Source: Marmoricola sp. (GTDB lineage: Bacteria; Actinomycetota; Actinomycetes; Propionibacteriales; Nocardioidaceae). Taken from it: DNA of 53,721 nt. Below are positions 22,530 to 47,017 of this stretch, piece by piece (the first letter of the stretch is position 1; the number at the start of each line of letters is the position of its first letter). The stretch lies in contig JBHWSH010000402.1 in the NCBI GenBank assembly GCA_043427135.1, positions 1-53,721 of the forward strand, given 5' to 3'. Below the pieces are notes generated by a model that was not told where the DNA came from, made no database searches, and saw nothing but the letters and a program-made list of their open reading frames with translations. A program made the position numbers and the translations under genes.

Positions 22530-22565
22530 AGTCCGGGCATGGTGTGACGGCGGGATACTCGGCGG

Positions 22566-26081: not shown

Positions 26082-26128
26082 GACTGCGGAGTCTGTGGTC
26101 CACCAGGTGGATCACACACTCCGCAGTC
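26082..26128. repeat. Palindromic repeat family A, copy 4
   Basis: GACTGCGGAGTCTGTGGTCCACCAGGTGGATCACACACTCCGCAGTC. Confidence 0.85.
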
Positions 26129-26208
26129 CCGGCGTCGAGCAGGGTTGAGCCCGTTCGCGGACGAGCAAACTCCCGGCGGAGCACGATGCCAGGAAAAGGA
26201 GCTCGTCC

Positions 26209-29856: not shown

Positions 29857-30633
29857 ATGGGAAGCGCGATCGCCTTCGGCGCCGTCGCCTCCAGCGCCCT
29901 GGTGCTGGGGTCGCTCGCCGGGCTGTGGCTGCGGCTGCCGAAGCGGGTGCTGGCGGCGATGCTGGCGTTCGCCGCCGGCTCGCTGATGACGGCGCTGGCA
30001 TTCGAGCTCTTCGAGGACTCCTACGAGCAGGGCGGTCTGTGGCGGGCCGCGCTCGGCCTGATCGTCGGTGCGCTGGTGTTCACCGCGATCAGCCAGTGGC
30101 TCGACCGGGCCGCCGAAGGCGCCCACGGCTCGGAGATCGGGTCGGAGAAGCTCGACCCGGAGGCGGCCGCCTCGGACCGGGCCGCGTCGTCGGCGTCCAC
30201 GACGGGCGCCGCCGGCCTCGCCCTGCTCGCGGCGGTGACCCTGGACGGCGTACCGGAGAACCTGGCGCTGGGCATCGCGCTGGGTGAGGGCACCGGCGGG
30301 TTGGCGTTGTTGGCGGCCATCTTCGTGTCCAACTTCCCCGAGGCGCTCGTCGGCAGCGCGTCGATGCGCGAGCAGGGCCGGTCGGCCGGGTTCGTGCTCG
30401 GCATGTGGTGGGTGTGCGCGCTGCTGCTCACCCTCGCCGTCGTCGTCGGCGCCGGGCCGCTGTCGAACGCCGACCCCACGACGATCTCGCTGCCGCTGGC
30501 GTTCGCCGCCGGTGCGGTGCTGGCGTCGCTGGCCGACACGCTGATGCCCGAGGCCTACCAGGACGGCGGGTGGGAGGTCTCGCTCGCGACGGCCGCCGGG
30601 TTCGTGCTGTCGTTCTACCTCGCCACGCTGTGA
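29857..30633 (+). CDS. ZIP metal transporter, copy 2
   Basis: 258 aa, colinear and near-identical in protein to 8639..9415. Confidence 0.9.
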   Translation: MGSAIAFGAVASSALVLGSLAGLWLRLPKRVLAAMLAFAAGSLMTALAFELFEDSYEQGGLWRAALGLIVGALVFTAISQWLDRAAEGAHGSEIGSEKLDPEAAASDRAASSASTTGAAGLALLAAVTLDGVPENLALGIALGEGTGGLALLAAIFVSNFPEALVGSASMREQGRSAGFVLGMWWVCALLLTLAVVVGAGPLSNADPTTISLPLAFAAGAVLASLADTLMPEAYQDGGWEVSLATAAGFVLSFYLATL

Positions 30634-30835
30634 GTGCCGGCCCGGCGCCGTACGACGAACGGCCGGGGCCGCGGGAACAGGTGCAGGGGCCGTCGCACCG
30701 CCGGTCCTGCCGTCTGCGAGCGGCACCGCCTGTCCGCGCGGCCCTGCCGGCCCGAGCTGTGAGGGACCGAACGCAGCTTTCCCTGCGCTGCGTGACCGGG
30801 GCGACGCAGGATGGAGGTGGAAGAAGGTGATCGGG

Positions 30836-31045
30836 ATGGCTGGCTCGTCGAGCCACGACCACGGCCCACAACAGCTGTCGATGCTGACCTACGGACTGCT
30901 CTTCGGCCCCGCGATGGGGATGCTCGTCGCGCTCGTCCTCGTCGGCGATGAGGCGCTCGCGCTGGGCTTGACGATCGGCGCAGCGGCCGGGGTCCTGCTG
31001 GGTGCGCTGCTGGACGTCGAGCGGGAGCGGCGCAGCGGTCGCTGA
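30836..31045 (+). CDS. Small two-TM glycine-rich membrane protein
   Basis: YGLLFGPAMG...ALGLTIGAAAGVLLG. Confidence 0.55.
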   Translation: MAGSSSHDHGPQQLSMLTYGLLFGPAMGMLVALVLVGDEALALGLTIGAAAGVLLGALLDVERERRSGR

Positions 31046-31052
31046 CGGGACG

Positions 31053-32709
31053 TCAGAGTCCGAGGCCGCCGTCGACGACCGGGCCGAAGCGGCCGCGGAT
31101 CTCGGGCGTGCGTTCGCGGGCGATCGCCAGGTAGTTGCTGAGCTGGTCGACGAAGACCTCCTCGTCGAACTTCGCGAACAGCAGCTCCGTCACCTGCCAC
31201 AGGCAGTGACCGCCGAGCCACCAGTGCGTGCCCATGGTGCTGGTGCGGCCGTGCAGCGCGTTGGCGAAGTCGACGATGGTCGCGCGCAGGTCGTCGGGCA
31301 CCTCGAGTACCCGGTGGTGAAATCGGACGTAGGGGAACAGCTCCTCGTTGGCGAGTACGGCGACGTCGATGCCGTCCTTCTCGAACGCGAATCGGCCGGG
31401 TGCGTACTCGTCCGGGTCGGCCTGCAGCCAGTCGCGCAACGAGTCGCGGACGAGTGAGATGAGCTCGTCGGCGTCGGCGGGCTTGGCGACCCTCGGCTCG
31501 TGTCGCGGCCGCTTGGGTAGCACCGGTCGCCGGCGGCGAGGCACCTGAGCGGCGTCGACAGGCGTGCCGCGCGCCCACAGCCGCACGTCCTCGACGTCCT
31601 CGACGACCCGTTGCAGGATCCAGGGGATGTCGAAGGCGAGCATGCGCGCGTCGTAGATGTCGACGTCCTTGTGCAGGCTGGCGGGATCGTTCCCGAACGG
31701 CTCCCAGCCCTCGGCCAGGAGCTCATCGCGCAGGTCGTCGTCGAGGTCGAGATCCGACGCCTGCACCGTGATCGAGCCGAGCGTGGAGAAGGCGGCGATG
31801 TGCGGTCCGTCGATGCCGGCGTCGGTCAGGCCGACCACGAGGGCGTCGCCGTAGTCGAGCCCGGCCTCGCCACGGAAGCCGGCCAGCGCGAGGGACAGGT
31901 AGGCATCCAGCCCGTCCCACCCGTCGTACCCGTTGAACGGCAAGCGTGTCCGCAGCGGCCAGTCCTCGGTCGACATCACGTCGTCGTCCTCGTCCGCCCA
32001 CGCCAGCCCCATCGCCTCCGGGAACGCGTGGAAGACCAGGGACGCGGTGAGCTCGACCATGCGGTCGACGTCGTCCATGTCGAGGGCGACGTACTCCTCG
32101 ACGATGGCAGCGAGCTGCTTCTCCTCCTCGTCGCCGAACCGCTCCGCGAACTCCTGCAACGCCGGGTCGGTGATCTCGTCGGGCAGGTGCTCGCGTCCGA
32201 TGAGGTACGCCGCGCGCGGGTAGGTGTCGAAGGTCGGCATCGCCTCGAGCTCGGCCGTGTCGAGCGCCGTGATCGCCTCGACGGCGTCGGGGCAGAGTGC
32301 GAGCACCAGGTCGTCGAGCCAGTAGCCGTGCAGGATCCGATGTGCGGCGTCGAACGCCCAGGCGTAGGGCTCGTCGAGCCCTTGCTCCTGCTCGAAGCGG
32401 ACGTGTGCGTCGGCGGCGTCCGCCCAGTCGGCGTCGCTCGCGAGCCAGGCAGCGGTCGCCCGCAGCGCCAGGCCTTCGACGACCCGGTCGGCCTCGACGG
32501 TCGGTCGACGTCCGACCCAGCCCTCGACGACGTCGCGGTCGAGCAGTAGGACTGTGGACCGCGGGTCCACCAGGTAGGGGAGCGCCGCGGTCTGCCTGCC
32601 GCGGGACCCACGACAGCGTCACGGTCGCAGGCTCCTCGAGCGTCTCCTGCAGAGCGCGGCATCGGACCTCGGCGGCCCGAAGCCGGGTCTCCCACCGTGC
32701 GTCGTCCAT
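31053..32709 (-). pseudogene. Acidic multidomain protein with TY-Chap/YbjN (T3SS-chaperone-like) domains; frameshifted by a 4-bp duplication at 32593-32600 (505-aa ORF from 32570 remains)
   Basis: ATG 32709 has a GAGGAG RBS; removing one TGCC joins it in frame to the 505-aa ORF (550 aa total); W..L...L...GD.L...L..GW.P and P...EL..LV...L patterns resemble TY-Chap N/C domains. Confidence 0.6.
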
Positions 32710-32735
32710 CGGTCTCCTCGTCGTGGCTGGGTCGG

Positions 32736-33302
32736 TCAGTCGTGGGGCCGGGGGTGGGCCAGCCGTAGCTCGGCGGCAAGCTCCGGGTGCGTCAGGAGCG
32801 CGGCCCGCAGCAGCCGCTTGGCGCGGGCGACGCGCTGGTCGACCGCGGCCCGCTCGATGCCGAACCGGTCCGCGACTGCGGCGGCGTCGAGGTCGTCGAC
32901 GAACCGCAGCCGGAGCACCTCGGCCGCCCCCGGCGGCAACAGCTGCAGGACCCGATCGAGCAGGTCGGCGCGGACCGGCACCAGCGACGGCGTCGACAGC
33001 GTGCGCAGCTCGGCGAGGAGGTCCTCGACGTCGCCGTCCTCGGTCTCCACCGGTCCGCGAACGAACTCGTGCTCTTCGCGCCGGCGTTGGCGGCGCAGGA
33101 AGCCGGTGGCCTCGTTGCGCACCGCCACTTCGAGCCACGCCGCCGGGTTGCGCGGGCCGTCCCCGTCCCGGAAGGCGCCGAGGTAGTCCGCGACCGCCTC
33201 ATGAGCGATGTCCTCCTGGTCCTGCGGGGCCAGCCCCCGGGTGAGGCGGTGGACGCGCGCCAGCCGGAGCGCGTCGGCGTACACGTCGATCGTCTGCGTC
33301 AT
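32736..33302 (-). CDS. ECF-type sigma-70 factor
   Basis: Region 2 QEDIAHEA...AWL..AVRN...LRR; region 4 LPP..AEVL.LRF...A.VA...GI...V..R..RA...LR. Confidence 0.85.
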   Translation of the reverse strand: MTQTIDVYADALRLARVHRLTRGLAPQDQEDIAHEAVADYLGAFRDGDGPRNPAAWLEVAVRNEATGFLRRQRRREEHEFVRGPVETEDGDVEDLLAELRTLSTPSLVPVRADLLDRVLQLLPPGAAEVLRLRFVDDLDAAAVADRFGIERAAVDQRVARAKRLLRAALLTHPELAAELRLAHPRPHD

Positions 33303-33375
33303 GGCCGCAGTGTGTGCCCGGGGTCCGAACCAACTCGGGTGTCAGATCGAGAGCCGCGCCGGCGTCGGGGGGTGT

Positions 33376-33981
33376 ATGAACGACACCGACATCCAGACCC
33401 TGCCCGTCCTCGAGGTCGCGAACGCGCACTTCGTCACGCCGTACCTCGCGGTCGGCGGCGACCTCGCCTACGACGATGCCACCGCCGTCCGACAGTCCGT
33501 CGAGCTCGTCGTCACGGGCGGCGTCACCCATGTCCTCGACGTCCGCTTCGAGGCCGATGACACCGACTGGTGGGCCGAGACCGAGGTCAGCTACCTGTGG
33601 GCCGGCATCGACGACGCCGGCCAGCGCGTGCCGGGCGAGTGGTTCGACCACGTGACCGGGTGGGCGCTTGCCGCGATCAAGGACGGTGGCGTCGTCCTGA
33701 CCCACTGTCACATGGGCATCAACCGCGGGCCGAGCGCCGGGTTCGCCGTCCTCGTCGGCCTGGGCTGGGACCCGGTGGTCGCACTGGCCGCCATCCGGGC
33801 GGCGCGCCCGATCGCGCACATCTGGTACGCCGAGGACGCCCTGGAGTGGCACTTCGACCGCGTCGGCGCCATCCCGGCCCAGCGGCGTACGACGCGCGCC
33901 CTGGTGGCGCAATGGCGCGAGCACAACCCGCTCGACGTGGTCCGGATCATCCGCCGGATCCGCGCCGGTGAGGCCGGTTGA
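33376..33981 (+). CDS. Dual-specificity / PTP-like phosphatase (CX5R)
   Basis: L.VGGD, GVTHVLD.R, IDDAG, VLTHCHMGINRGPS. Confidence 0.9.
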   Translation: MNDTDIQTLPVLEVANAHFVTPYLAVGGDLAYDDATAVRQSVELVVTGGVTHVLDVRFEADDTDWWAETEVSYLWAGIDDAGQRVPGEWFDHVTGWALAAIKDGGVVLTHCHMGINRGPSAGFAVLVGLGWDPVVALAAIRAARPIAHIWYAEDALEWHFDRVGAIPAQRRTTRALVAQWREHNPLDVVRIIRRIRAGEAG

Positions 33982-34032
33982 TTCGGACCCCAACCACATC
34001 ATCGCTTCACCACGACGAGGAGGGAGCCCGAG

Positions 34033-34953
34033 ATGACCGAGCTGATCGCCCGAACACGCATCGCACTGTCGCTCAAGCCGGACTTCACCGAAGGCCGGTG
34101 GGAGTGGAGCCTCGCAGGGGAGGGCTTCACGCTCACCGGCTCGGTGCCGGCCCGCGACCGGGAGGACGCCGTGTTGCTGGCGCTCGGTGCCAGCTACGAC
34201 TCGTTGCGAGACCGCGGCCCGGTGCAGTTGGTCGTCTCGCTGCCGGCCAGCGCCCGGTTGTGGGCGTACGCCGGCGACGTCGCCGCGCACTTCGCCGGTG
34301 TCACGCTGGTGCCTTTCAAGGACACCGACACCGAGCTGCGGGCGACAGCGATGAAGGCGTTGAACGCCCAGCCGCTCACTGCACCGGCCGTCCCGATGCA
34401 GCGGGTTCCTGACGGCCCGCTCACCGTCGCCACCGACGGCTCGGCGTCCCGCGGCCGGATCGGCTGGGGTTGGGTGACCGACGACGGGCGGCACGACTGC
34501 GGCTCGGCCACGCCGACGGTGAAGGCGTGCACCCGGCGCATCCAGCCGGCGTACGCCGAGCTGCGGGCGATCTCCGAGGCGATCGCGGCGCTGCCCGGTC
34601 GCGACCTGGTGATCCGCAGCGATTGCCAGCCGGCCGTGACGCTGGTCCGCGACTGGATCGCCGGGGTCGACCGGATGCCGTTCGGCTACGACGCCACCCA
34701 CCACGACGCCGACCGGCGGGGAGGCCTGCGCTGGATGCAGAAGCAGGTGCGCGCCGAAGCGCACCGCATCGACATCGGCTGGGTGCGCGGCCACGCCGGC
34801 GACCCGCTCAACGAGGCCGCCGACTCCCTCGCCAAGCTCGCCCGCCGCGCGACCGAGGGCACGTGGGGCTTCGCTCCCGCCGATGTCCCCGAGCGCGCCC
34901 GCGCCATCGCCGACGCGTTCGTCGGCCACCACCAGCCCGCAGCCGCGGCCTGA
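34033..34953 (+). CDS. Ribonuclease HI-family protein with an extra N-terminal domain
   Basis: All four acidic sites present: ATDGS, AELRAI, IRSDC, WVRGH.G..LNEAAD.LA. Confidence 0.9.
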   Translation: MTELIARTRIALSLKPDFTEGRWEWSLAGEGFTLTGSVPARDREDAVLLALGASYDSLRDRGPVQLVVSLPASARLWAYAGDVAAHFAGVTLVPFKDTDTELRATAMKALNAQPLTAPAVPMQRVPDGPLTVATDGSASRGRIGWGWVTDDGRHDCGSATPTVKACTRRIQPAYAELRAISEAIAALPGRDLVIRSDCQPAVTLVRDWIAGVDRMPFGYDATHHDADRRGGLRWMQKQVRAEAHRIDIGWVRGHAGDPLNEAADSLAKLARRATEGTWGFAPADVPERARAIADAFVGHHQPAAAA

Positions 34954-34978
34954 CCCACCACCGTCCTCGGGAGGACCC

Positions 34979-36277
34979 ATGAAGATCAACGCACTCCTCG
35001 ACGTCAACGTCGTCGCCCACGAGACCGAGGACGAGGTGGCCGTGCTGCTCGAGCTCGAGGCGCCCGCCGCGGTCTCCGGTGCGCCACGTCCGCAGGCGTC
35101 GCTGCAGGTCGTCCTCGACCGCTCCGGCTCCATGTCCGGCCCGCCGCTCGAGGGTGCGAAGCGGGCGCTCGTCGCGCTGGTGCGCCGGCTGGACCCGAAC
35201 GACAACTTCGGGTTGGTCACCTTCGACGACTCCGCGCAGGTGGTCGTGCCCGCCGGCCCACTCACCGACAAGGAGGCGGTGATCCAGCGGATCGAGGCCG
35301 TCCACGCCGGCGGGTCGACGGACCTGTCCGCCGGCTACCTCCGCGGCCTGCGGGAGCTCCGCCGGGTGCTGCCCACCGGCGCCGGGCCCCGGGCGAGCGG
35401 CACCGTCCTGGTGATCTCCGACGGCCACGTCAACGCCGGCGTCCGCGACGTCGACGAGTTCGCGACGGTGACGGCCAAGGCGTACCTCGACGGGATCGTC
35501 ACCTCGACGCTCGGCTATGGACGCGGGTACGACGAGACGCTGCTGGCCGCGATCGCACGGTCCGGCTCGGGCAACCACGTGTTCGCCGCCGACCCGGACG
35601 CCGCCGGTGCGGCCATCGCCGGCGAGGTGGACGGCCTGCTCGACAAGGTGGTGCAAGCGGTGTCGCTGACGGTGCGATTCGAGCCGGCGGTGCAGTTCCT
35701 GCGGCTCTACAACGATCTGCCTGCGCAGCAGATCGGGGACGGCCAGGTGATGATCGAGTTGGGCGACCTCTACAGCGAGGAGGCCCGCAAGGTCCTGCTC
35801 AAGCTGCGGGTGCCGGCGCTGGCCGACCTGGGTCTGGCCCGGGTGGCGACGCTCGAGCTCGCGTACGTCGAGCTGCCCGGCCTGGTCGAGCACACCGCGG
35901 CGCTGCCGATCAACGTCAACGTGGTGCCCGGGGACGAGGCCGCCGGCCGGGTGGCGCACCCGACGGTGCACTCCGAGGTGCTCTTCCAGGAGGCTCAGGA
36001 GGTGAAGCGGCAGGCGTCGGAGGCGTTCGAGCGCGGAGACTTCGCCGGCGGTCAGCAGCTCATCCGGGAGACCAAGGAGCGGCTCGGCCGGTCGCTGGAG
36101 GTCGCCCCCGAGGCGCTCAAGCCGGAGATCCGCGCGGAGCTCGGCGAGGTCGACCGGATGGAGCACCTCGGCGACACGACCGGCCCGTTGGCGGCGCCGA
36201 TGATGTCGAAGATGTCGCGGGAGTCCTACCACCGCAGCAACCGCAAGCGCGGCCGCCGGATGGAGACCGACGAGTGA
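34979..36277 (+). CDS. vWA domain protein (intact MIDAS) with Ig-like and helical C-terminus
   Basis: VVLDRSGSM, GGSTDL, ISDGHVN, STLGYG..YDE.LL..IA. Confidence 0.92.
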   Translation: MKINALLDVNVVAHETEDEVAVLLELEAPAAVSGAPRPQASLQVVLDRSGSMSGPPLEGAKRALVALVRRLDPNDNFGLVTFDDSAQVVVPAGPLTDKEAVIQRIEAVHAGGSTDLSAGYLRGLRELRRVLPTGAGPRASGTVLVISDGHVNAGVRDVDEFATVTAKAYLDGIVTSTLGYGRGYDETLLAAIARSGSGNHVFAADPDAAGAAIAGEVDGLLDKVVQAVSLTVRFEPAVQFLRLYNDLPAQQIGDGQVMIELGDLYSEEARKVLLKLRVPALADLGLARVATLELAYVELPGLVEHTAALPINVNVVPGDEAAGRVAHPTVHSEVLFQEAQEVKRQASEAFERGDFAGGQQLIRETKERLGRSLEVAPEALKPEIRAELGEVDRMEHLGDTTGPLAAPMMSKMSRESYHRSNRKRGRRMETDE

Positions 36278-36334
36278 GCGTGGGCGGGCGCGGAGGAGAG
36301 CTCGGCCGGACACTGACCGGTGAGAGGAGGACGG

Positions 36335-36430
36335 ATGCGGACGATGAGCTTCGCGGAGTGCCAGGCCCGGTACGCCGAGGTCCTCGACCGGGTCGCGCGC
36401 GACCGGGAAGAGGTGGTGATCGTCCCCGCG
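36335..36430 (+). pseudogene. yefM: YefM/Phd antitoxin N-terminal fragment
   Basis: MRTMSFAE.QARYAEVLDRV..DREEVVI then diverges where the convergent gene ends. Confidence 0.7.
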
Positions 36431-36443
36431 TATCTCCGGTCCC

Positions 36444-38120
36444 TCAGGCTCCCGCGCGAACGTAGTAAGCGCCCCGTCGTTCGCCGCGAAGCTCCAACTC
36501 ACCGGCTTCAGTGAGGCGCTTGAGAACTGAGCGCGCCTGGCCCGGGCTCAGATGGCACAGCTCAGCAGCCTTGCTCCTCGTGATGCGCCCGAACTGTTCC
36601 ACGTAGGTCAAGATCAGGCGCTCTTGTTGGATCGGATCGGTGTCTTGCAGACGCACGTACTCACTGGACGCCGCAAGTCGGTAGAACGCCGCGGTCAAGT
36701 GGTGACGCCGGTTGCGGCCAGGCCCCCTCGAGTCGACGAGTCCCATCTCGGTCAGCCGGGCGATATGGGCACGCAGCACCGAGACAGGTTCGTGAAGGGC
36801 GTCGGTCAACTCCCCGGTCGTCATCGGCCCCATGGCCTTGAGCTCGTGCAGGATCTGCAACTGAGGTAAGGCAAGCACATGGCCTGTCGACTCCTCGTGC
36901 TCCAGCACGAAGCGGACCATCTCCAAGTCTGAATCGCTTGTGGGGATCTGCACGATGACGGCGTGATCGTTGGTGGCCGAGTAGTCCGGGCCTCCACGGC
37001 CGGCACGCAGCAGCTGCAGATACATCTCCCGAATGCCACGTCCAGCGCGGTCGACGATTCCTGCTCGTTTGAACGCCTCCGCCAAGATCGGGCTACGAGG
37101 CTTGGAGTCGTCGAGGAAGTTCAGGAGCGTGATTCCTGGCGGGAACCCGCCTGGACTGCTGACGCGGAACCGGTCATCAGCCAATTGGATCATGATGGAT
37201 CCGACCTCGGAGTAGTCGCGATGCACCAAGGCGTTGGCGATCGCCTCGCGGATGGTGGTGGGAGGCAGCCTTGGTACGCCGACCCGGTGGAGCCCGATCA
37301 CGAGTTCCTGCTCCGAGTTGCGGATGTCGACAAGGTCGAACGTGCGCTCGGCGGCTCGCAGCAGCGGCAGGCGCATCGTCTGGTTGGTCGTGATGGCGTC
37401 GCCGCGGAGCTCCTGGAAGATGACTTCAGCGGTCGGGACGTGGCGTTCCAGAGCTACAGAGGTTCCGAACAGGAGAATGGCGCCCAACGTGAGCTGGTTG
37501 TCTTGCTCGGGGAGGACGAGCCGGAGACTCCTGAGGATCTCGGCATTGTCCAGCTGAGCGAGTGTCTGATCGCCCTTGCCGCTCGCGCACAAGGCTCGGA
37601 AGCGCTGGAACTCGGTCTCGTCGAGGTCGTCGAGGTGTGCTCCGCGGGCCGGGGTCGCGGCGTAGTCGCGTCCTTGGGCTGTCAGCCCTGCCGAGAGCAT
37701 TTCGTGGAGGGGATACCGAATGCACTCGGGCTTGCCGTCGACACGAAGGGAACGGCGCAGGTACTTGCCTGTTGTCTTCGACCCGACCGGGATGACTGCT
37801 TTCGGCACGTCGATGACGGCTACGGACTTGTCACCCACGTCGATGACGTCGACGGTGGTCGGCACCGGGGCATCGGTGCGGTTCACGATCATTGCTTGGA
37901 TGAGTTCGGGTCGTGTCCCCGAGTCATGACGTGGTTCGAGGCCCGTGATGGTGCCATCGTCCTCCACGCCCAGAAGCAGGAGGCCGCCTTCGCCATTGGC
38001 GAGGCAGACAACGGCGTCGACGATGTCGTTGTCGCTCAGTGAAGAACGCGCACCGCGCTTGAATTCCACGGTCAGCGACTCTCCACGCGCGGTGAGCTCA
38101 CGCACCTCATCAGGGGTCAC
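36444..38120 (-). CDS. AlbA_2 (Schlafen-like) - ATP-binding (HATPase_c_4/RecG-C-like) - HTH protein
   Basis: GESLTVEFK, CLAN.EGG.LLLGVEDDG, REAIANALVHRDY, SSPGG, RAGRG, two C-terminal wHTH regions; lower GC3 than neighbours. Confidence 0.88.
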   Translation of the reverse strand: MTPDEVRELTARGESLTVEFKRGARSSLSDNDIVDAVVCLANGEGGLLLLGVEDDGTITGLEPRHDSGTRPELIQAMIVNRTDAPVPTTVDVIDVGDKSVAVIDVPKAVIPVGSKTTGKYLRRSLRVDGKPECIRYPLHEMLSAGLTAQGRDYAATPARGAHLDDLDETEFQRFRALCASGKGDQTLAQLDNAEILRSLRLVLPEQDNQLTLGAILLFGTSVALERHVPTAEVIFQELRGDAITTNQTMRLPLLRAAERTFDLVDIRNSEQELVIGLHRVGVPRLPPTTIREAIANALVHRDYSEVGSIMIQLADDRFRVSSPGGFPPGITLLNFLDDSKPRSPILAEAFKRAGIVDRAGRGIREMYLQLLRAGRGGPDYSATNDHAVIVQIPTSDSDLEMVRFVLEHEESTGHVLALPQLQILHELKAMGPMTTGELTDALHEPVSVLRAHIARLTEMGLVDSRGPGRNRRHHLTAAFYRLAASSEYVRLQDTDPIQQERLILTYVEQFGRITRSKAAELCHLSPGQARSVLKRLTEAGELELRGERRGAYYVRAGA

Positions 38121-38123
38121 GCG

Positions 38124-38194
38124 GCCATAGTTATGCATATATATGAGTCTGGCAAGAGCTGGACTGATTGACGCCATACTTATGCATAGAAATG
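38124..38194. promoter_or_regulatory. Two 22-bp AT-rich direct repeats (38124-38145, 38173-38194), each containing palindrome TATGCATA
   Basis: GCCATAGTTATGCATATATATG and GCCATACTTATGCATAGAAATG, 49 bp apart, in a divergent promoter region. Confidence 0.7.
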
Positions 38195-38289
38195 GAGAAT
38201 CCGGCGGCCGCTGCCGAGCCAGCAACGACCGTGATTCGGCTGACCGGGACGCCGACAGACGGCAGGATGGAGGCGGACGGGGGAGTGAG

Positions 38290-39195
38290 ATGCCACCAGG
38301 GCGGGACCAGGTCAAGGCGATGGAGCGGCTCGCCCGCATCATCGCCGTCCTCGACGCGGCGGGGGTCGTCGGTGCGACCGCGGAGCGGCTGATCGCGGTC
38401 GCCGACTACGGCGAGGCCGCCCCGCAGGACCAGCTCAGTCTCGACCTGCGCAACCTGCGCAAGCAGGGCTGGCAGATCGACAACGTCGCCGGCCCCGGCG
38501 AGCCGGCCCGCTACCGGATGGTCAGCGGCGACAACCGGCTGCGCGTCCGGCTGACACCCGCCCAGCTGGCGGCGCTGCAACGGGCGGTGCTGCTGTCGCA
38601 GCGGTCCGACCTCGCCCAGCGTCTCGGCGTCGAGCCGGGCTCGGTGCCGGAGGGGGTCGGCAGCGAGGTGCTGCCGCAGCGGGAGAGCGAGGAGCTGTCG
38701 CTGGTGTTCCGGGCGGTTCAGCTCGGCGGCCGGATCCGGTTCACCTACAAGGGCACGCCGCGCGTCGTACATCCCGGGACGGTCCGGTTCCAGAACTACC
38801 AGTGGTACTTCAGCGGCGTGGAGGACGGCAGCGACCTGGTCAAGCACTTCATCGTCGGCGACATGAGCGCGGTGTTCCTCGACAAGCCGGGGACCGCGCG
38901 GGAGGTGTCGGTGGACCGGCGCATCCCGCTGCACCCGCTGCGCTGGGAGGTCGACGAGCCGACCGCGGTGACGGTCCGGACGACGCCGGAGTACGTCCCG
39001 GACGTGGTCCGCTGGCTGATGGAGCCCGACTCCCAGACCGAGACGGACGGCGTGGTGGACATGCGGTACACCGTCACCCACCGGCAGGCGTTCCGCGCTC
39101 GCGTCTACGTGCTCGGCAGCCGGGTCACGATCCCGGACGGTGGCGTGGTCCTCGAGGGCCTGCTGGACGAGCTGCGCGCGATGGTGGGCCGCTGA
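38290..39195 (+). CDS. WYL-domain regulator (PafB-like: wHTH-WYL-WCX)
   Basis: ERLARII, DLRNLRKQGW.I, IRF.Y...R.VHP, WYF.G. Confidence 0.85.
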   Translation: MPPGRDQVKAMERLARIIAVLDAAGVVGATAERLIAVADYGEAAPQDQLSLDLRNLRKQGWQIDNVAGPGEPARYRMVSGDNRLRVRLTPAQLAALQRAVLLSQRSDLAQRLGVEPGSVPEGVGSEVLPQRESEELSLVFRAVQLGGRIRFTYKGTPRVVHPGTVRFQNYQWYFSGVEDGSDLVKHFIVGDMSAVFLDKPGTAREVSVDRRIPLHPLRWEVDEPTAVTVRTTPEYVPDVVRWLMEPDSQTETDGVVDMRYTVTHRQAFRARVYVLGSRVTIPDGGVVLEGLLDELRAMVGR

Positions 39196-40229
39196 TGGCC
39201 ACGCCGAAGTACCTCCAGCGCCTGGCCCGCCTGCCCGAGGTGATGTCGCTGCTCGCGGCGTACCCGGACGGGATGTCGCTGCGCCGCCTCGCCGACCAGT
39301 TCGGCGTCGACGTGGAGACGATGCGCCAGGACCTGGTCACCTACCTCGACCTGGAGTCGTGGGGGTGGTCGTTCGACATCTTCCGGCGGCCGGCGATCGA
39401 GTTCGTGCAGCCCGAGGGCGGCTACCGGACCGACGGGTCGGGCGGCACGATGGTCCGCATCGTCGGCGACGCCTCACCGGGCCTGGGGGTGGAGCACCTG
39501 TCGGCCGGCGACCGGGCCACCCTCTACACGGCCGGTGTCGCGCTGCTCGACGTCGAGCCGGACGACACCGACCTGGCCGAGGCGCTCGGGGTGCTCGCGG
39601 AGACGATGTACGGCGAGCCGGCCTCGTCGCTGCGTGTAGGGGACTGGAACCGTTTCCTCGCCGAGCTGCAGGACGCCCAGGAGCAGGGCCGCCGGGTGCG
39701 GATCGTCTACTCCCGCGCCTGGCGCGAGGGCGTGACCGAGCGGGTGATCGAGCCGCTGCGGCTGGTGCAGACCCGCCGCGGCTGGGAGGTCGACGCCGGG
39801 CCGGTGGGGCCGGAGGGCAACCTGCGGACGTTCCTCCTGTCCAACATCCGCTCCGCCGAGGTCCTCGACGAGACGTTCGACCCGCCGGCAGGTGTCGAGG
39901 CGCTGCTGAAGCGGCAGCGCGCGACCACCACCGTCCGCCTCGAGCTGGCGCAGGACGCCCGCTGGGCCGCACGCCTGTACGTCGAACGCGTGACCGTGGT
40001 CGCGGAGGACGAGGAGACGTTCACCGCTGACCTCGAGCTGCTGCCGCCGGTGGGTGAGCGGGTCGGGCTGATCCTGCTCGCCAGTGGGCCGTCGGCGCGC
40101 GTCATCTCGCCGGGAGCGGTGCTGCCGGAGGCGCTCGGGGTGGTGGGGGAGCTGTTGCGGCACCACGAGGGTGCACGGGCAGACGATCGTGTTCGAACAC
40201 AACAACTGACAGATGCGAAGGGCAGCTGA
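39195..40229 (+). CDS. WYL-domain regulator (PafC-like)
   Basis: RL..L...HTH (LADQFGV....RQDL), VRI.Y....TERVIEP.RL, W.V.A, RTF.LSNI; TGATG-coupled to the first WYL gene. Confidence 0.85.
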   Translation: MATPKYLQRLARLPEVMSLLAAYPDGMSLRRLADQFGVDVETMRQDLVTYLDLESWGWSFDIFRRPAIEFVQPEGGYRTDGSGGTMVRIVGDASPGLGVEHLSAGDRATLYTAGVALLDVEPDDTDLAEALGVLAETMYGEPASSLRVGDWNRFLAELQDAQEQGRRVRIVYSRAWREGVTERVIEPLRLVQTRRGWEVDAGPVGPEGNLRTFLLSNIRSAEVLDETFDPPAGVEALLKRQRATTTVRLELAQDARWAARLYVERVTVVAEDEETFTADLELLPPVGERVGLILLASGPSARVISPGAVLPEALGVVGELLRHHEGARADDRVRTQQLTDAKGS

Positions 40230-40230
40230 G

Positions 40231-41382
40231 ATGCGCAAGCTGAGCGTGAAAGGCTCCAACCAGTCTTCACCCGAAGATCGGGCCGTCGTTGTGCAAGAGC
40301 GGGACGAGATGCGGAGGTTCGTCAAGGAGTTGAGCGGGGATGACATCACCTCAGGCAGCTGGTTCACGAAGCTGCTGATGCACTCCCTCAGCACTTACAC
40401 CTCAACGGTGGATTGGCAGTACTTCCAGGAGCGTTATCGAGGTTTGCCGCCGGATATCATCGTCGACCAGCGGATCAGGATGGCGGCGCGGTACGCCGCG
40501 ATCGGAGGCGGCCTCTCAGCGAGTGCGTATACGGGGGCAGTAGCCGCGACGATCGGTAGTCTCGGCGGCGCGAGCCCAGCGACTGTTCCAGTTGCGACCG
40601 CCACGATGCTGGTCGACGTCGCCTACACATCGCGTCTCCAGCTGCATCTGGCGTACGACATCGCAGTGCTCTACCGCGTTCCGCTGGACCTGAACGATCC
40701 AGATGATCTGTGGAAGCTCATCCGAATCGCGTTCACCATCAAGGGCGGCGAGGCTGTCAGTGAGGGCTTGCTGAAGGCAGTGCCGGCCGCCGTGCGTCCC
40801 CTGATCAAGCGCTACTACTCCAAAGGTGTGCTTCACGCGGCCAAGGGGCTGCCGGTCGTTGGAAAGCATCTTCTGCAGCGCAACGTCATCAAGATCGGCA
40901 TCCCCCTCGTTGGCGTGCCGCTCGCGGTACTGGTGAATCGACAGACCACACTCATTGCGGGGCGACATGCGCGGGTCGTATTCCGGAACGAGGCTCGCAT
41001 CGTCGAGATTGCTCGACAGCTCGTGACCGATACGCGCCACCCTGATCTGGTGCTGTGGTTGGCGTGGCTCGTCACCGTGGCGGACAACAAGACCAACGAT
41101 GACATCGCGCTTCTACTGCGCTACCTGGCTGCGCTCCTCGAAGAGGAGCATTCGGTGATGGATGACGACTTGACTGCCTTGATCACCACTGACGCAGCGG
41201 CGATCTGGTGCCGTCTCGAGACAGCTGACGGGGACCGCAGTGATCTGATCCAGGCCGCGCACCGGATAGGGCAGGTGGCCGGTTCCAGCTCACGCACCCG
41301 CGCTGTCGTCGCGGAGATCGCGGAACGCTTAGGTTCGGGCAATGGTGGAGGTCGTCCTTCGAAGCTGGTCCGCTCCGGGTAG
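40231..41382 (+). CDS. EcsC-like protein with possible C-terminal TerB-like region
   Basis: Gly/Ala-rich hydrophobic hairpin followed by LQL.LAYDIA.LY..P.D..D; lower GC3. Confidence 0.5.
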   Translation: MRKLSVKGSNQSSPEDRAVVVQERDEMRRFVKELSGDDITSGSWFTKLLMHSLSTYTSTVDWQYFQERYRGLPPDIIVDQRIRMAARYAAIGGGLSASAYTGAVAATIGSLGGASPATVPVATATMLVDVAYTSRLQLHLAYDIAVLYRVPLDLNDPDDLWKLIRIAFTIKGGEAVSEGLLKAVPAAVRPLIKRYYSKGVLHAAKGLPVVGKHLLQRNVIKIGIPLVGVPLAVLVNRQTTLIAGRHARVVFRNEARIVEIARQLVTDTRHPDLVLWLAWLVTVADNKTNDDIALLLRYLAALLEEEHSVMDDDLTALITTDAAAIWCRLETADGDRSDLIQAAHRIGQVAGSSSRTRAVVAEIAERLGSGNGGGRPSKLVRSG

Positions 41383-41425
41383 GCGCTCCCGTAGGGTCGG
41401 AACCAGGACCTGACGGGGAGGCTCT

Positions 41426-41764
41426 GTGGACATCTGGGACGTACGCGATCGGCTGATCGACGACTACCAGTCCTTCACGACCGCTTTCGTCGACATTCGC
41501 GACCGCCGGATCAAGCAGTACGTCGACGAGCAGCTGCAGCGCGGTGACCAGTGGCCCGAGCCGTGGATCTCGCTGAACCCTATGTTCGCCAGCGGCGGCA
41601 CCGTCCACGACCTCGTCCAGCAGGACCTGCTCCACCCGGAGTGCGAGCGGATCTTCCGGGTTAAGGACGGCCCGAGCGACCCGGGTTCCCGCGACATCAC
41701 GTTCCACCGCCACCAGCGCGACGCGATCGAGGTGGCCGCGAGCAAGAAGAGCTACGTCCTCACC
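41426..41764 (+). pseudogene. N-terminal fragment of a large DEAD/DEAH helicase, cut just before Walker A
   Basis: RD.LI.DY.SF...FV.IRD...WPEPWISLNP.F...HRHQ.DAI...SYVLT; the expected TGTGSGKS is absent. Confidence 0.8.
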
Positions 41765-41985
41765 CTGCGGTGGCCGGCGCCTTGCTCGGCGCATTCCACG
41801 GCTACGAGGCACTGCCTGTCGCGTTGACCAACCGGCTGGAGGTGGGATGGGTCATGGACCAGCTGGCGCGCGACCTGGCGCGGCAGGCGATCGAGAATCA
41901 GGCCGGCGCGGGGTGGAAGTCTGAAGACTCGGACCCCGACCCACCCCTCGATCCCTGGTGGGACACGCGCTATCCGGGGGTATGA
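41765..41985 (+). pseudogene. C-terminal fragment of an ADP-ribosylglycohydrolase
   Basis: AVAGALLGA.HG..ALP..L..RLE...V.D.LARDL...W..RYPG. Confidence 0.75.
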
Positions 41986-42020
41986 CCTCCCGCGCGACGC
42001 CATCAGAAGGAGACACACCA

Positions 42021-42332
42021 GTGACCTACATGGTTCCGATCACCCCGCCGCACCAGACGTCTGGATACACGACTCACGGAGCGGTGGACCTCGCCACGGG
42101 ACACGAATGGACGGTCTACCTCAACCCGCACCACGTCGATTTCCGTCCGCTCCACGGGAGCGTGGACGAGCACGAGCAAAGGGCCGCCGACCTGGCGCGC
42201 GCCATGTCGAGCCGCAACGCTCGGGTCTACACCAAGACCCATGGCGGAGCCTCGCTCGAGTACGGCGTCCGCGTGCGGTACGACGGCGCCGTCCCAGCGT
42301 TCAAGAGCGACGAGTCGGCTGCTCGCGCATGA
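42021..42332 (+). CDS. Hypothetical protein
   Basis: AAGGAG RBS, 103-aa ORF with biased codons. Confidence 0.5.
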   Translation: MTYMVPITPPHQTSGYTTHGAVDLATGHEWTVYLNPHHVDFRPLHGSVDEHEQRAADLARAMSSRNARVYTKTHGGASLEYGVRVRYDGAVPAFKSDESAARA

Positions 42333-42658
42333 TCGGCGATCAGGAATGCGCAGTGAAGGCGCCGACTTCCGGGCGCTCCTGTTCGAGGAGATGCGATCGG
42401 ATCGCTCCGGGCCTGGTCCCGACGGGCACGCCGCCCGCGCCTTCGTCGGGCCGTTGGTGACGCGAACCCGCTGATTGCGCGGCACTCCGCGGCGTCAGCG
42501 CGGCCGCTGGGACGGCGCAGCGCCAGACGCGGAATACGAGGCGTTGCGCCCCATGCCCGTCACGATCGCCGAGGGGCCGCCGATCTGATCCCCGCAGGAG
42601 GCTCTCGGCGTTTCGACGAGCACCTGTTCTACGACAGGAACATGCCGTCACCGCGCGC

Positions 42659-42676: not shown

Positions 42677-42683
42677 ATGGCCC

Positions 42684-42929
42684 ATGGCCACGATCGGCGT
42701 ACGCGAGCTGCGGCAGAACGCCTCGGATCTGCTCCGGCGGGTCGAAGCCGGCGAGGAGATCACCGTGACCGTCGCCGGGCGTCCCAGTGCTCGCCTGGTG
42801 CCAATGGCGCCCACCCAATGGCGGACTTGGGACGACATCGCCGAGCTCTTCGGCGGCCGCCCGGATCACGACTGGGAACGCGATCGCGCCCTCCTCGACC
42901 ACGGCGTCGAGGATCCCTGGGGCCCCTGA
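42684..42929 (+). CDS. vapB: Phd/YefM (VapB) antitoxin
   Basis: IGVRELRQNAS.LLRRVEAGEEI.VT..GRP.ARLVP. Confidence 0.9.
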   Translation: MATIGVRELRQNASDLLRRVEAGEEITVTVAGRPSARLVPMAPTQWRTWDDIAELFGGRPDHDWERDRALLDHGVEDPWGP

Positions 42930-43321
42930 TGACATCGACGCAGCGTGGCCTGCTGGACACGAGTGTCGTGATCGCGAGCGACGTCGCTCCCATGTCCGGC
43001 GCACTGGCAATCAGTGCCGTCACCCTTGCCGAACTCCACTTCGGCGTGCTCGTTGCTCGAACGCCCGAAGCGCGGGCGGAGCGGCTCCGGCGCCTCAGCA
43101 TCCTGCAACGGCACTTCGACGCGCTGCCCGTCGACGATTCTGTCGCAGTGGCTTACGGCAAGTTGGCCGCCGCTGTGGTCGACTCCGGGCGACAGCCTCG
43201 CCGTCGCGCCCTGGATCTGATGATCGCGGCAACCGCGCACGTGCATCAGGCGACGCTCTACACGCGCAACCCCTACGACTTCGCCGGCCTCGAGGAGATG
43301 GTCGAGATCGTCGTCGTCTGA
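42929..43321 (+). CDS. vapC: VapC PIN toxin
   Basis: LLDTSV, SAVT.AEL..G, DL.IAATA, LYTRN..DF. Confidence 0.92.
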   Translation: MTSTQRGLLDTSVVIASDVAPMSGALAISAVTLAELHFGVLVARTPEARAERLRRLSILQRHFDALPVDDSVAVAYGKLAAAVVDSGRQPRRRALDLMIAATAHVHQATLYTRNPYDFAGLEEMVEIVVV

Positions 43322-44139: not shown

Positions 44140-44559
44140 ATGAGACCGCGTCTGGCCATCGCGATCGACGCGCCGGCCGACCTGGCGTGGGAGCAGTTGA
44201 TCGACCTGCGGTGGTGGCCCCGCTGGGGTCCAACCGTGCGGGCGGCCCGTCTCGACGACGGGTCGTACCTGCTGTCAGCTGGTGCGACCGGCGCGGTGGA
44301 GCCACTGGTCGGTCCGTGGCTGTCGTTCCGCGTCGACGCGTGGCAGGTCGACGCCGACCGGCGGTGCTGGTCGTGGCGCGTCGCCGGCGTACCTGCGACC
44401 GAACACGTCGTCGTCGACCTCGGGCCGTCCCAGTGCCGGGTGGAGATGACCGTGCCGTGGTGGGCGGCCTCCTACCTCGGCGTCATCGCTGTGGCCTTGT
44501 CGCGGATCAGGCGGTACGCCGAGGAAGCCGCCGGCACCGGCAGGCCGCTGACGCTCTGA
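44140..44559 (+). CDS. SRPBCC/polyketide cyclase family protein
   Basis: IDAPA..AW..L.D...WP.WGP. Confidence 0.85.
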   Translation: MRPRLAIAIDAPADLAWEQLIDLRWWPRWGPTVRAARLDDGSYLLSAGATGAVEPLVGPWLSFRVDAWQVDADRRCWSWRVAGVPATEHVVVDLGPSQCRVEMTVPWWAASYLGVIAVALSRIRRYAEEAAGTGRPLTL

Positions 44560-44632
44560 TCGGGTTGCTCTTCCGCTCCCGCCACCGACCGTGTAGGCAC
44601 GAACTCCACGCGTCGACGACAGGAGCAAGCCG

Positions 44633-44974
44633 GTGACGAAGTACCTGATCTCGTTCCCCAGCGGCGAGATGGACATCCCCGAGGGCGGGATCGAGGCGGT
44701 CGCGGAGACCGCGCACGCCGTCGTACGCGAAGCCAAGGAAGCCGGCGTCTGGGTCTTCGGCGGCGGCATCGACGAGAGCGTCGCGCCGGTGCGCGTCACC
44801 GCGGACGGCACGGTCCTCCAGGGCACCTACCCGCAGACGCAGCACCTCGAGGGCGGCTACAGCATCCTCGAGCTCCCGACGTACGACGACGCGCTGCGCT
44901 GGGCGGCGAAGTTCGCCGCTGGCTGCCGCTGCCCTCAGGAGGTGCGGGCGTTCGCGTACGACCCGGAGAGCTGA
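44633..44974 (+). CDS. YciI/DGPF family protein, copy 2
   Basis: Paralogue of 16869..17210. Confidence 0.85.
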   Translation: MTKYLISFPSGEMDIPEGGIEAVAETAHAVVREAKEAGVWVFGGGIDESVAPVRVTADGTVLQGTYPQTQHLEGGYSILELPTYDDALRWAAKFAAGCRCPQEVRAFAYDPES

Positions 44975-44999
44975 CCGGCCCTTCGATCACCGCCGCGAG

Positions 45000-45170
45000 C
45001 TACTCCTTCGACGGAGCGCATGCCACGATCGCACCCGACACGGCCATCGCCAGGCCGAGGGTGTCCACATGAGTCAGCTCCGGCGTACCGGAGTCCCCCA
45101 CGGCGTTGACGACCAGCACGAGGAGTCCAAGCGCCCACTCCAACGGGCCGACCCCGGGAATGATGTCCAT
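45000..45170 (-). CDS. 56-aa hydrophobic small protein, copy 2
   Basis: MDIIPGVGPL...ACAPSKE; below the ORF-track cutoff; same length as copy 1. Confidence 0.5.
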   Translation of the reverse strand: MDIIPGVGPLEWALGLLVLVVNAVGDSGTPELTHVDTLGLAMAVSGAIVACAPSKE

Positions 45171-45218
45171 CGCCGAAGAGTACGGAGCGCCGGACCTAGA
45201 TGACCCCCTGAGCCGGTC

Positions 45219-45623
45219 TTACGGCGCTGGCTCGACCAGGCGGAACTGCAGACAGACGACCGGTGTCTCGCCCTCGACGGGCGTGCCTGCTTCCGCCCAG
45301 TAGCGTCGGTGTCCGGCCCGCCACTCCTCCCGGTCGGCGTCACCCTCGCCCTCGGCTTCCGCGAACGACCACGGCACGTCGACGAACCGCATGACGTCGA
45401 CCTGCGTGACCTCGATGGTGGCGATCTGCTGGCGCGCGTTGTCGAGTACGGCGAGGCACTCGCCGACATGCTCGGGGGCCTCGCCCTCCTGCTCGTACTC
45501 GCTCACCAGCCCGGCGGTGGCGCGCTTTTCGCCGGCCAGCACGAGCCGGTTGAGCTCGTCGCGCATGCGCCCCGGCGAGCCGAACTCGATCGAGCGCAGG
45601 CCGCCCACCCGCGGCCAGGTCAT
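45219..45623 (-). CDS. ASCH domain protein, copy 2
   Basis: Paralogue of 18074..18466. Confidence 0.9.
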   Translation of the reverse strand: MTWPRVGGLRSIEFGSPGRMRDELNRLVLAGEKRATAGLVSEYEQEGEAPEHVGECLAVLDNARQQIATIEVTQVDVMRFVDVPWSFAEAEGEGDADREEWRAGHRRYWAEAGTPVEGETPVVCLQFRLVEPAP

Positions 45624-45790
45624 CGCGGCGTCCTGCCGTGCGGGTGGGTCACTCGATCAGGCATGACAGCAGGCTAGGTGCCCGATCGGGCGACGCGGAT
45701 GGCCCATCCGAGCCAGTAGGTCCTTGGTCTCCGGACACGAACCGGGGCGCCGCCGTACGGTGATCATCTTCTTCGGCAACGGGGGTCGAG

Positions 45791-46651: not shown

Positions 46652-46667
46652 CGCCTAGCCTGACTTC

Positions 46668-46996: not shown

Positions 46997-47017
46997 ATTC
47001 CGGGTAGCATGGGAGAC

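Follow-up and report, generated by a model that had tools for sequence, protein, structure and literature searches.

ADP-ribosylglycohydrolase (ARG)-centric systems are conflict systems that computational work has predicted for actinobacteria as well as other phyla (Iyer, Burroughs, Anantharaman and Aravind 2022, Viruses 14:1977, PMC9503650, section 3.8). As described in that section, their core is an ARG without a coupled transferase, and the search template excluded coupled ADP-ribosyltransferases or sirtuins. A Nudix or WYL regulator is present in more than 42% of the systems, and a phosphatase, mostly of the rhodanese-phosphatase superfamily, in about 55% of them. The chaperone is a vWA, SseB or TY-Chap1-3 protein, and nucleases, helicases, Macro, NADAR or ARPP proteins are variable additions. 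The systems have been proposed to strip the ADP-ribose that phage enzymes attach to host macromolecules; no experimental test of them was found in the literature searched. The subject of this work is a gene cluster (31053-41985) on contig JBHWSH010000402.1 of Marmoricola sp., a contig of 53.7 kb that was analysed as a whole and is called here the window. In this cluster a sigma factor gene and a chaperone gene on the minus strand are transcribed divergently from genes for a phosphatase, an RNase H and a vWA protein, and two WYL regulator genes and the stubs of a helicase and of an ARG gene lie further along the plus strand.

On balance, this locus is probably a variant and partly decayed copy of a predicted ARG-centric conflict system. 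The window and its relatives correspond component by component to the systems of PMC9503650, and the locus is thus of a kind already described by computational prediction. The initial annotation, which was made from the sequence alone, had not recognised the combination as a named system; this part of it does not stand, because the combination is that of the ARG-centric systems and the relatives of the window vWA protein lie in such systems, including canonical NrtR/ARG/phosphatase operons. The window has a WYL regulator, a CX5R phosphatase and both a vWA and a TY-Chap chaperone. It also shares the helicase or nuclease additions, the rapid turnover and the patchy spread that are hallmarks of conflict systems. 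Unlike the described systems, the WYL regulator of the window consists of two overlapping genes. Three features go beyond the main text of that paper: the tandem of a pseudo-RNase H and an RNase H domain, the PafBC-like WYL pair, and the divergent ECF (extracytoplasmic function) sigma factor with its sequence motif.

Other known systems resemble parts of the locus. The two WYL genes are adjacent and translationally coupled, as in PafBC, and the second one weakly matches the PafBC structure 6SJ9. Nevertheless, the pair is not beside pafA, which is on another contig of the assembly (C1), and lies instead in a mobile, defence-type neighbourhood. The earlier label of a PafBC-like pair is right for the architecture only. 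The C-domain of the window RNase H has the RNase HI fold and the acidic set of residues, and the two domains together match the connection and RNase H domains of retroviral reverse transcriptase (RT). Unlike RT, the protein lacks a polymerase domain and its N-domain is family-specific, and the housekeeping RNases H of related genomes match its C-domain only. DarTG and DarHTG, as summarised in PMC13069673, are toxin-antitoxin defence systems with an ADP-ribosylglycohydrolase-like antitoxin and a helicase, and the stubs of the window likewise place a helicase beside an ARG-fold gene in a defence context. On the other hand, no DarT-like gene was recognised among the ORFs (open reading frames) scanned in the intact relatives, loci L125 and L137, a scan that was not aimed at DarT, and the intact relative of the helicase stub differs from DarHTG in being a 1725-aa DEAD/MZB helicase followed by an SNF2 helicase and an N6 methylase. 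With the models of PADLOC-DB v2, the two regulators match generic WYL models only, and no named anti-phage system is recovered.

The phosphatase, RNase H and vWA genes and their relatives

Because shadow ORFs are numerous at the high GC content of the window (about 70%), genes were called from codon-position GC and checked with family scans. The phosphatase, RNase H and vWA genes follow each other on the plus strand with intergenic gaps of 51 and 25 nt, as closely spaced as had been noticed before. The first gene (33376-33981, +) encodes a CX5R dual-specificity / rhodanese-phosphatase-superfamily phosphatase of 201 aa with the motif HCHMGINRG. Its start is corrected here to 33376 from 33208, as the longer ORF begins with 56 codons that lie over the sigma gene and make no sense as protein. 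The match to DSPc (E 2e-5) is under the Pfam gathering cut-off and the similarity to human DUSP3/VHR is distant (E 0.006-0.015). The dual-specificity phosphatase (DSP) that is fused to ARG in the relatives is also a weak match (33% identity over 49 residues, E 0.002). In longer homologues the phosphatase is joined to an EVE or NUDIX domain, and these proteins match PTP-SAK and Tc-R-P weakly. These fusions make nucleotide or nucleic-acid substrates fit the enzyme better than phosphoproteins.

The second gene (34033-34953, +) encodes an RNase H of 306 aa with two domains, an N-domain of RNase H-like fold and a C-domain of canonical RNase HI type in which the DEDD(H) set is complete. Pfam RNase_H (PF00075) matches residues 130-270 with an E of 7.4e-16. 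Residues D135, E176, D197, H254 and D264, which we take to be equivalent to E. coli D10/E48/D70/H124/D134, are invariant among 16 homologues and make up a complete RNase HI active site, in agreement with the earlier description. The AlphaFold model (predicted local distance difference test, pLDDT, 86.8) contains two RNase H-like folds, and VIA-align compares the C-domain with RNase HI at Z 14.0. Residues 3-273 align with the connection and RNase H domains of HIV-1 RT (320-556) at Z 13.1 over 198 residues with a root mean square deviation of 15.0, a value which means that both domains match HIV-1 RT but their relative placement does not. The N-domain (residues 4-123) resembles an integrase core at Z 8.8, and integrase cores and the RNase H-like domain of UvrC score Z 7.7-8.8. 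No acidic residue of this domain (about 8-111) is invariant over the family, and with identities of 18-69%, versus 36-71% for the C-domain, it is the faster-evolving half. With the N-domain alone as query, no more than 10 of 1.84 billion representatives match at E<=1e-3. An origin of the protein by internal duplication was considered and rejected, since its two domains share no sequence similarity.

The third gene (34979-36277, +) encodes a vWA protein of 432 aa in which the metal ion-dependent adhesion site (MIDAS), D47-x-S49-x-S51, is intact and the C-terminal half is family-specific. Pfam VWA is matched with an E of 5.3e-18 and the MIDAS is invariant in 16 sequences, which agrees with the initial annotation. 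This is the most conserved gene of the neighbourhood, with 48-84% identity to 15 relatives. A complex prediction for the vWA protein with the RNase H gave a score of 0.00 in a run without controls, which is no evidence either way.

The neighbourhood recurs in other genomes, in support of the interpretation given in the initial annotation. For the relatives of the RNase H, 80 loci were fetched by alignment of homologues and the best 15 of the 80 were examined; a metagenome scan with the same protein gave 79 loci, of which the 10 covering the N-domain were examined. The phosphatase, RNase H and vWA genes, a small gene and the two WYL genes are collinear in Nocardioides sp. Soil805 and N. zhouii, with 64-84% protein identity. 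The order in N. ganghwensis is unchanged except that the phosphatase gene is missing. A metagenome-assembled genome (MAG) of Actinomycetota has only a fragment of the phosphatase gene, and its RNase H and vWA genes are followed by TY-Chap3, ARG and DSP phosphatase genes and then by the WYL pair. Among metagenome contigs, L140 has the phosphatase, RNase H and vWA genes in order, L141 has a TY-Chap gene, the RNase H and vWA genes and, further on, an ARG, and L142 has the RNase H gene with no vWA gene downstream. With the trio and the overlapping WYL pair arranged alike in four further genomes of actinobacteria, and the trio or its RNase H-vWA part on metagenome contigs, this is a real conserved neighbourhood. 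In the Nocardioides loci, the genes after the WYL pair encode an HD-like protein, SIR2_2, NrtR, a TY-Chap3+TY-Chap1 protein, a 261-aa protein and an ARG fused to a DSP phosphatase; the N. ganghwensis locus also has a 'REase-ARP' nuclease. The loci are surrounded by defence and toxin-antitoxin genes, a setting of the conflict type that had been proposed.

The link between RNase H and vWA protein is confined to close relatives. A protein search with the RNase H gave 34 cluster representatives at 49-68% identity and at least 91% coverage, some of them named Nocardioides, and a second group at 30-36% identity that includes Mycobacterium. Where sequence beyond the RNase H gene is available in relatives with at least 49% identity, the vWA gene comes next in seven of eight cases (the window, L012-L015, L140 and L141, not L142), and in Gordonia sedimidis it precedes the RNase H gene, with stop and start overlapping. 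In the distant clade (Mycolicibacterium and a metagenome contig, 31-35% identity), only close kin have a partner gene in common, and the link is therefore limited to the clade of at least 49% identity and Gordonia sedimidis. Twenty-four genomes of the same genus hold no full-length relative of the RNase H, with matches to the C-domain only at 31-39% identity.

The vWA family leads more widely to ARG systems. A scan with the vWA protein gave 17 close loci, in which the partners found were an ARG within 10 kb (7), NrtR (6), the WYL pair (6), a phosphatase (5 to 6), TY-Chap (5), RNase H (4) and the sigma factor (4); five loci had none of the listed partners. Three Gordonia loci consist of NrtR and vWA-ARG::phosphatase only. 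When 400 genomes were drawn evenly from the class, the vWA family was present in 24 of them and in 13 of 175 genera (the count of genera includes the genome of the window). Twenty of these 24 loci were fetched, four of six from one genus being omitted, and 114 neighbouring ORFs were scanned, with those below 100 aa excluded and 7 of 121 selected ORFs removed as the vWA gene itself or nested in longer ORFs. An ARG was found in four of the 20 loci, once as a vWA::ARG fusion and once with ARPP-1 (PF20208) and NrtR. The fusion protein (L260 6999-9326, +, genome G523) has 775 aa, with the vWA domain at residues 44-200 and the ARG domain at 496-761. TY-Chap was present in three loci, a DSP phosphatase in four, a histone-deacetylase-type gene in two, and a sigma-like gene, the WYL pair and RNase H in one each. 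The vWA family may thus pair with different 'eraser' enzymes.

Related to this family, some further arrangements were observed. In L262 and L263, from small genomes of 47-48% GC, and in L107 (Nocardioides sp. Root682), the partner of the vWA gene is a histone-deacetylase-type gene (PF00850) instead of an ARG, with a DSP phosphatase gene in addition in L262. Downstream of the vWA gene in L100 (1587-5204) and L101 (12773-16255) is a gene for a protein of 1160-1205 aa that combines an RNase_H_2 exonuclease-like domain with a superfamily-1 helicase; it adjoins the vWA gene in L100, is separated from it by a 251-aa gene in L101, and differs from the RNase H partner of the window.

The regulators and the chaperone

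Two coupled WYL genes had been recognised before, and their coupling is seen in the TGATG in which the start of the second overlaps the stop of the first. WYL regulator 1 (38290-39195, +, 301 aa) matches Pfam WYL weakly (19.8 bits, below the cut-off of 21.8) and a PADLOC WYL model at 1.4e-11. It is 62-70% identical to, and collinear with WYL regulator 2 in, its counterparts in L012, L013, L014, L015 and L110, and its start codon context, ATGCCACCAGG, is conserved. WYL regulator 2 (39195-40229, +, 344 aa) matches Pfam WYL at E 4.9e-11 to 8.3e-11, and the PADLOC WYL models match both genes. Its sole sequence match in the PDB is PafBC 6SJ9 (E 3.5e-4 over 70 residues of the WYL domain); WYL regulator 1 has no sequence match there. 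Contig C1 carries dop and pafA with a WYL gene just after pafA. As the genome has its own WYL gene linked to pafA and dop, the pair of the window is an extra paralogue.

The ECF-type sigma-70 factor (32736-33302, -) is encoded divergently from the phosphatase operon and matches TIGR02937 (E 6e-16; 58.5 bits, the cut-off being 42.9), Sigma70_r4_2 (E 3.9e-10) and Sigma70_r2, which substantiates its earlier identification. Sigma genes of 36-40% identity occupy the equivalent place in loci L012/L099, L014/L106, L101 and L105, and both Nocardioides sp. Soil805 and N. zhouii have a divergent ECF sigma gene upstream. The sigma and phosphatase genes of the window are 73 nt apart, and this spacer contains a promoter-like motif, TGTCAG-N17-GCGTC (33340-33366, +), 9 nt before the phosphatase ATG. 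In the alignment of this spacer, the blocks GTCAG and GCGTCG are invariant across the five sigma-linked loci, all of five, and the rest has diverged. The exact motif lies upstream of the phosphatase gene in L014/L106, L101 and L105, and in L012 a C replaces the first T. It occurs once in the window, where 0.33 occurrences are expected by chance and where the motif turns up one or more times in 31 of 100 shuffles. In two of the five sigma-linked loci the flanks that were fetched do not contain a WYL pair. In loci where the motif is farther from the ATG, a Shine-Dalgarno-like GGAGA follows it on the 3' side. To judge from this conservation, TGTCAG-N17-GCGTC is a candidate promoter of the adjacent ECF sigma factor, and such a promoter would give a leaderless or near-leaderless phosphatase mRNA. 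A simple scan of 30800-42500 for sigma-70 promoters and terminators gave no sites. The word TGTCRGTG, which we take to be that of RecA-NDp/PafBC-type promoters, was also considered; it occurs 11 times in the window (4.2 expected), never upstream of cluster genes in the sense direction, and was dropped.

The TY-Chap-type chaperone gene (31053-32709, -) encodes a helical N-domain followed by TY-Chap3-like and TY-Chap1-like domains and contains one frameshift. Its main open frame is 31053-32570 (-), whereas the true start is an ATG at 32709, 26 nt past the sigma stop; a frameshift near 32585-32600 splits the first 42 codons or so from the rest. Homologues have about 45 extra N-terminal residues, which the window encodes in another frame. 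The chaperone-like character that had been assigned to this gene is borne out by profile and fold, with the start and the frameshift as amendments. The window protein itself has no Pfam match. A search of 5.8 billion proteins gave only four homologues, one of them with PF22552, and in an alignment of the window protein with these four, TY-Chap3 is matched in three of the five and TY-Chap1 in two, weakly, the window protein scoring nothing. The comparison by hhalign with a Nocardioides TY-Chap3+TY-Chap1 protein gives a probability of 94% and an E of 1e-7 over residues 215-483. The AlphaFold model (pLDDT 72.6) has a helical N-domain and two alpha/beta domains, and the best solved matches in Foldseek are chaperones of type III secretion systems (ExsC, SycN/YscB, CesT) and YbjN. 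Scans of genome contigs and metagenome contigs gave no relative of this chaperone family.

Decay and surroundings of the window copy

The remnants of a helicase and of an ARG that had been described at the end of the cluster can now be placed within intact proteins. The 5' helicase stub (41384-41764, +, about 127 codons) derives from a large DEAD/Helicase_C/MZB helicase and matches, with 65% identity, residues 2-126 of such a protein in genome G213 (DEAD+Helicase_C+MZB, 1725 aa). The intact gene stands there after TY-Chap-ARG-DSP-SIR2-nuclease and before the SNF2 helicase and N6 methylase genes. The arrangement of helicase, SNF2 helicase and 1284-aa N6 methylase in this genome (L125 1550-13387, -) is, we presume, reminiscent of DISARM. 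The 3' ARG stub (41767-41985, +, 71 codons and a stop) follows on from the helicase stub without a break. It corresponds to residues 304-374 of a PF03747 protein of 374 aa in genome G279, with 60% identity, and is 54-57% identical to the tail of the other ARG of the genome, on contig C371. It aligns with Pfam ARG positions 269-285 (E 0.0064). The intact relative is the second ARG of a TY-Chap1-ARG-ARG2-nuclease operon. BLASTP of the stub against the ARG of L015 was not significant, and the stub is placed via its closer relatives only. A deletion has apparently joined the two stubs. As the intact relatives of both sit in ARG systems, the window once held more of such a system. At most the phosphatase, RNase H, vWA and WYL part of the window copy can still work. 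It had been proposed that the module reverses ADP-ribose marks; because the ARG is a dead stub, this fails for the window copy.

Two genes of the cluster were not found in the related loci searched. Between the vWA gene and the first WYL gene lies a gene (36444-38177, -), overlooked in the initial annotation, for a protein with AlbA_2/Schlafen-like, HATPase_c_4 and two winged helix-turn-helix domains by Pfam. The GC content of this patch is 55-67% and that of its flanks 70-74%. Loci L012-L026 and L098-L114 give no tblastn match to it, and the protein partially matches PADLOC models for pAgo-associated proteins and Csa3. It looks like a recently acquired interloper outside the conserved set. 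In L012, L014, L015 and partly in L013, the gene before the first WYL gene encodes a 189-aa protein, for which the protein atlas and Pfam give no family, and the AlbA_2 gene takes its place in the window. The other gene (40213-41382, +) overlaps the stop of the second WYL gene by 17 nt and encodes a 389-aa protein of no recognised family, with no match in Pfam (E up to 5), NCBIfam or PADLOC. Its language-model neighbours fall into TerB/EcsC clusters in which 39-82% of the members have EcsC, at scores of 0.84-0.87, below the reliable level, and it is possibly TerB/EcsC-like (EcsC, PF12787), which is a lead only. No tblastn match to this protein was found in any related locus searched, and it is not conserved with the cluster.

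The window belongs to an assembly of 420 contigs that is 94% complete. Reads of four sequencing runs yielded short contigs only, 90-99% alike, one of which spans the end of the vWA gene into the AlbA_2 gene. No indel is listed in these contigs at the chaperone frameshift, where coverage is uncertain, so that the frameshift is neither confirmed nor refuted by them.

Several other elements of the window were observed. An Arr-ms family rifampin ADP-ribosyltransferase gene (2465-2875, +, E 1e-49), about 30 kb from the locus, represents an ADP-ribosyl-transferring enzyme of the host itself. A direct repeat of about 3.3 kb and 85-90% identity (16604-19780 and 44363-46942) brackets 24.5 kb that contain the locus; it carries small ORFs, ASCH (minus strand) and NERD, and a MazF/PemK gene (17686-18012) lies inside the span of its first copy. 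A 48-nt palindromic element occurs five times between genes (4206-4253, 8030-8077, 22487-22534, 26082-26129 and 51238-51285); its core is GGAGTCTGTGA.C.ACC.GGTGGATCACAGACTCCGG, and it resembles a repetitive extragenic palindromic (REP)-type repeat or a shared terminator hairpin. Two ZIP-family transporter genes (8639-9415 and 29857-30633) lie 21 kb apart with 87% DNA identity. The contig also carries conflict-type genes, namely Fic/DOC, NYN+LOTUS, a PIN/VapC toxin, a Phd-ParE pair and an AbiEii-like AAA_21 ATPase (12657-13475, 22987-23784, 42677-43321, 46991-47541 and 2909-3745).

Competing explanations and significance

Several observations weigh against the view that the locus is a variant copy of an ARG-centric system. 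The core of these systems is an intact PF03747 ARG and the window has a 71-codon stub; the Nocardioides relatives carry SIR2_2, whereas the search template asked for an ARG without sirtuins; and RNase H, sigma or ECF factors and PafB are unmentioned in the main text of PMC9503650, a statement that does not extend to its supplementary tables. PADLOC-DB v2 has no family for the chaperone, sigma factor, phosphatase, RNase H, vWA protein or 389-aa protein. The 94%-complete assembly holds no orthologues of the Nocardioides-type ARG, TY-Chap and SIR2 elsewhere. Genes of the relatives are broken too, the phosphatase being frameshifted in Soil805 and absent in N. ganghwensis, and the RNase H gene being frameshifted in N. 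zhouii. Besides, 16 of the 20 even-draw loci have no ARG in the flanks examined and about nine have no recognisable partner, which means that the vWA family is not strictly tied to ARG. Finally, the sequencing runs listed for the locus are six of DNA and none of RNA.

Some of these points would suit an independent, vWA-centred module targeting nucleic acids, which does not need ARG and merely lodges beside ARG systems. In the window the trio and the WYL pair are intact though the ARG is gone, and, with flanks of up to 10 kb, there is no ARG in L108 and L110 (vWA gene and WYL pair) or in L101 and L105 (sigma, phosphatase and vWA genes), in addition to the 16 even-draw loci. The EVE and NUDIX fusions of the phosphatase homologues point in the same direction, and the ARG part of the Nocardioides loci lies past the SIR2 gene and has its own regulator, NrtR. 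Nevertheless, the vWA family is tied to ARG by the fusion in L260 and by operons of NrtR and vWA-ARG::DSP without a second chaperone (L102-L104, L248), and L015 and L141 have ARG and TY-Chap genes between or beside the RNase H-vWA genes and the WYL pair. The RNase H, moreover, accompanies the vWA protein in a narrow clade only, as seen in four of 17 close loci and one of 20 even-draw loci. We consider such a module unlikely.

The broken genes raise another explanation, according to which the cluster is non-functional debris in a variable island, and the shared order in a few Nocardioides reflects the recent common descent or the transfer of one island rather than selection for joint function. 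The chaperone gene is frameshifted, the helicase and the ARG are stubs, the conserved small gene has been replaced by a low-GC insert, and the 3.3-kb repeat brackets the segment; the collinear genomes, furthermore, are close kin, three of them Nocardioides. Yet five genes of the cluster in the window have kept their full length and every catalytic or binding motif, and the intergenic motif is conserved where its flanks are not. Some of the frameshifts are in MAGs, where they may be sequencing errors. The components have been recombined across Nocardioides, Gordonia, an Acidimicrobiia MAG and small-genome actinobacteria, and such varied orders and combinations, including a gene fusion, are more than the shared descent of one island can account for. 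Debris is a rather improbable account of the cluster. Self-maintenance rather than conflict, with the WYL pair sensing single-stranded DNA and switching on repair genes, an RNase H clearing R-loops and a phosphatase cleaning DNA ends in a PafBC-like regulon of stress or DNA damage, would suit the catalytically complete RNase H. PafBC is an activator of the mycobacterial DNA damage response that responds to single-stranded DNA, and the overlapping WYL genes resemble pafB-pafC, with 6SJ9 as their sole solved sequence relative. On the other hand, the pair is additional to the WYL gene linked to pafA and dop on contig C1, the neighbours are toxin-antitoxin, restriction and defence genes, and no TGTCRGTG site lies upstream of cluster genes in the sense direction. 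The distribution is also unlike that of core repair genes, with the cluster found in none of 24 same-genus genomes and the vWA family in 24 of 400 genomes of the class. This explanation is very unlikely.

If the locus is a variant of an ARG-centric system, as we favour, its parts could act as follows. The system would bind host macromolecules modified by phage and erase the modification, with the MIDAS vWA protein and the TY-Chap protein as putative substrate-binding adaptors. In the intact relatives the ARG would strip ADP-ribose, and the CX5R phosphatase may handle the phosphate-bearing products. The tandem RNase H might be an added nuclease module that cuts RNA in RNA:DNA hybrids or on the modified targets. 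Regarding regulation, the overlapping WYL pair may form a PafBC-like heterodimeric, ligand-sensing regulator, and the divergent ECF sigma factor would drive the phosphatase-RNase H-vWA operon from TGTCAG-N17-GCGTC.

A bolder proposal, which we regard as decidedly doubtful in all its parts taken together, is that the vWA protein, the CX5R phosphatase and the tandem RNase H, induced by their own ECF sigma factor and a heterodimeric WYL sensor, would by themselves make up an immune 'eraser-nuclease'. Nucleic acid that is covalently linked to or hybridised with the modified host target, for example ADP-ribosylated DNA or RNA chains attached via ADP-ribose, would be bound by the inactive RNase H-like domain and cut by the active one, after which its end would be trimmed by the phosphatase. 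The sigma-linked TY-Chap protein with its extra helical domain would be a modification-sensing anti-sigma factor. If this were true, the repair of phage-inflicted marks would be combined with induction at the level of the sigma factor, a defence logic without tested precedent.

The observation made in the initial annotation is thus confirmed and its interpretation is partly supported, with co-regulation, the sensing of nucleic acid and the degradation of RNA:DNA hybrids as putative parts of it. According to the published proposal, ARG-centric systems would be the first in which a host repairs phage modifications of its molecules instead of avoiding them. To these the present neighbourhood adds a tandem RNase H nuclease, a two-gene WYL sensor paralogous to PafBC and a dedicated ECF sigma factor with a candidate promoter. 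The natural 'knock-outs', with the ARG lost in the window and the phosphatase or the RNase H lost in relatives, suggest which parts may work alone, and the intact Nocardioides relatives are better test subjects than the window copy. The pairing of the vWA protein with deacetylase-type genes hints at a wider class of vWA-guided 'eraser' systems.

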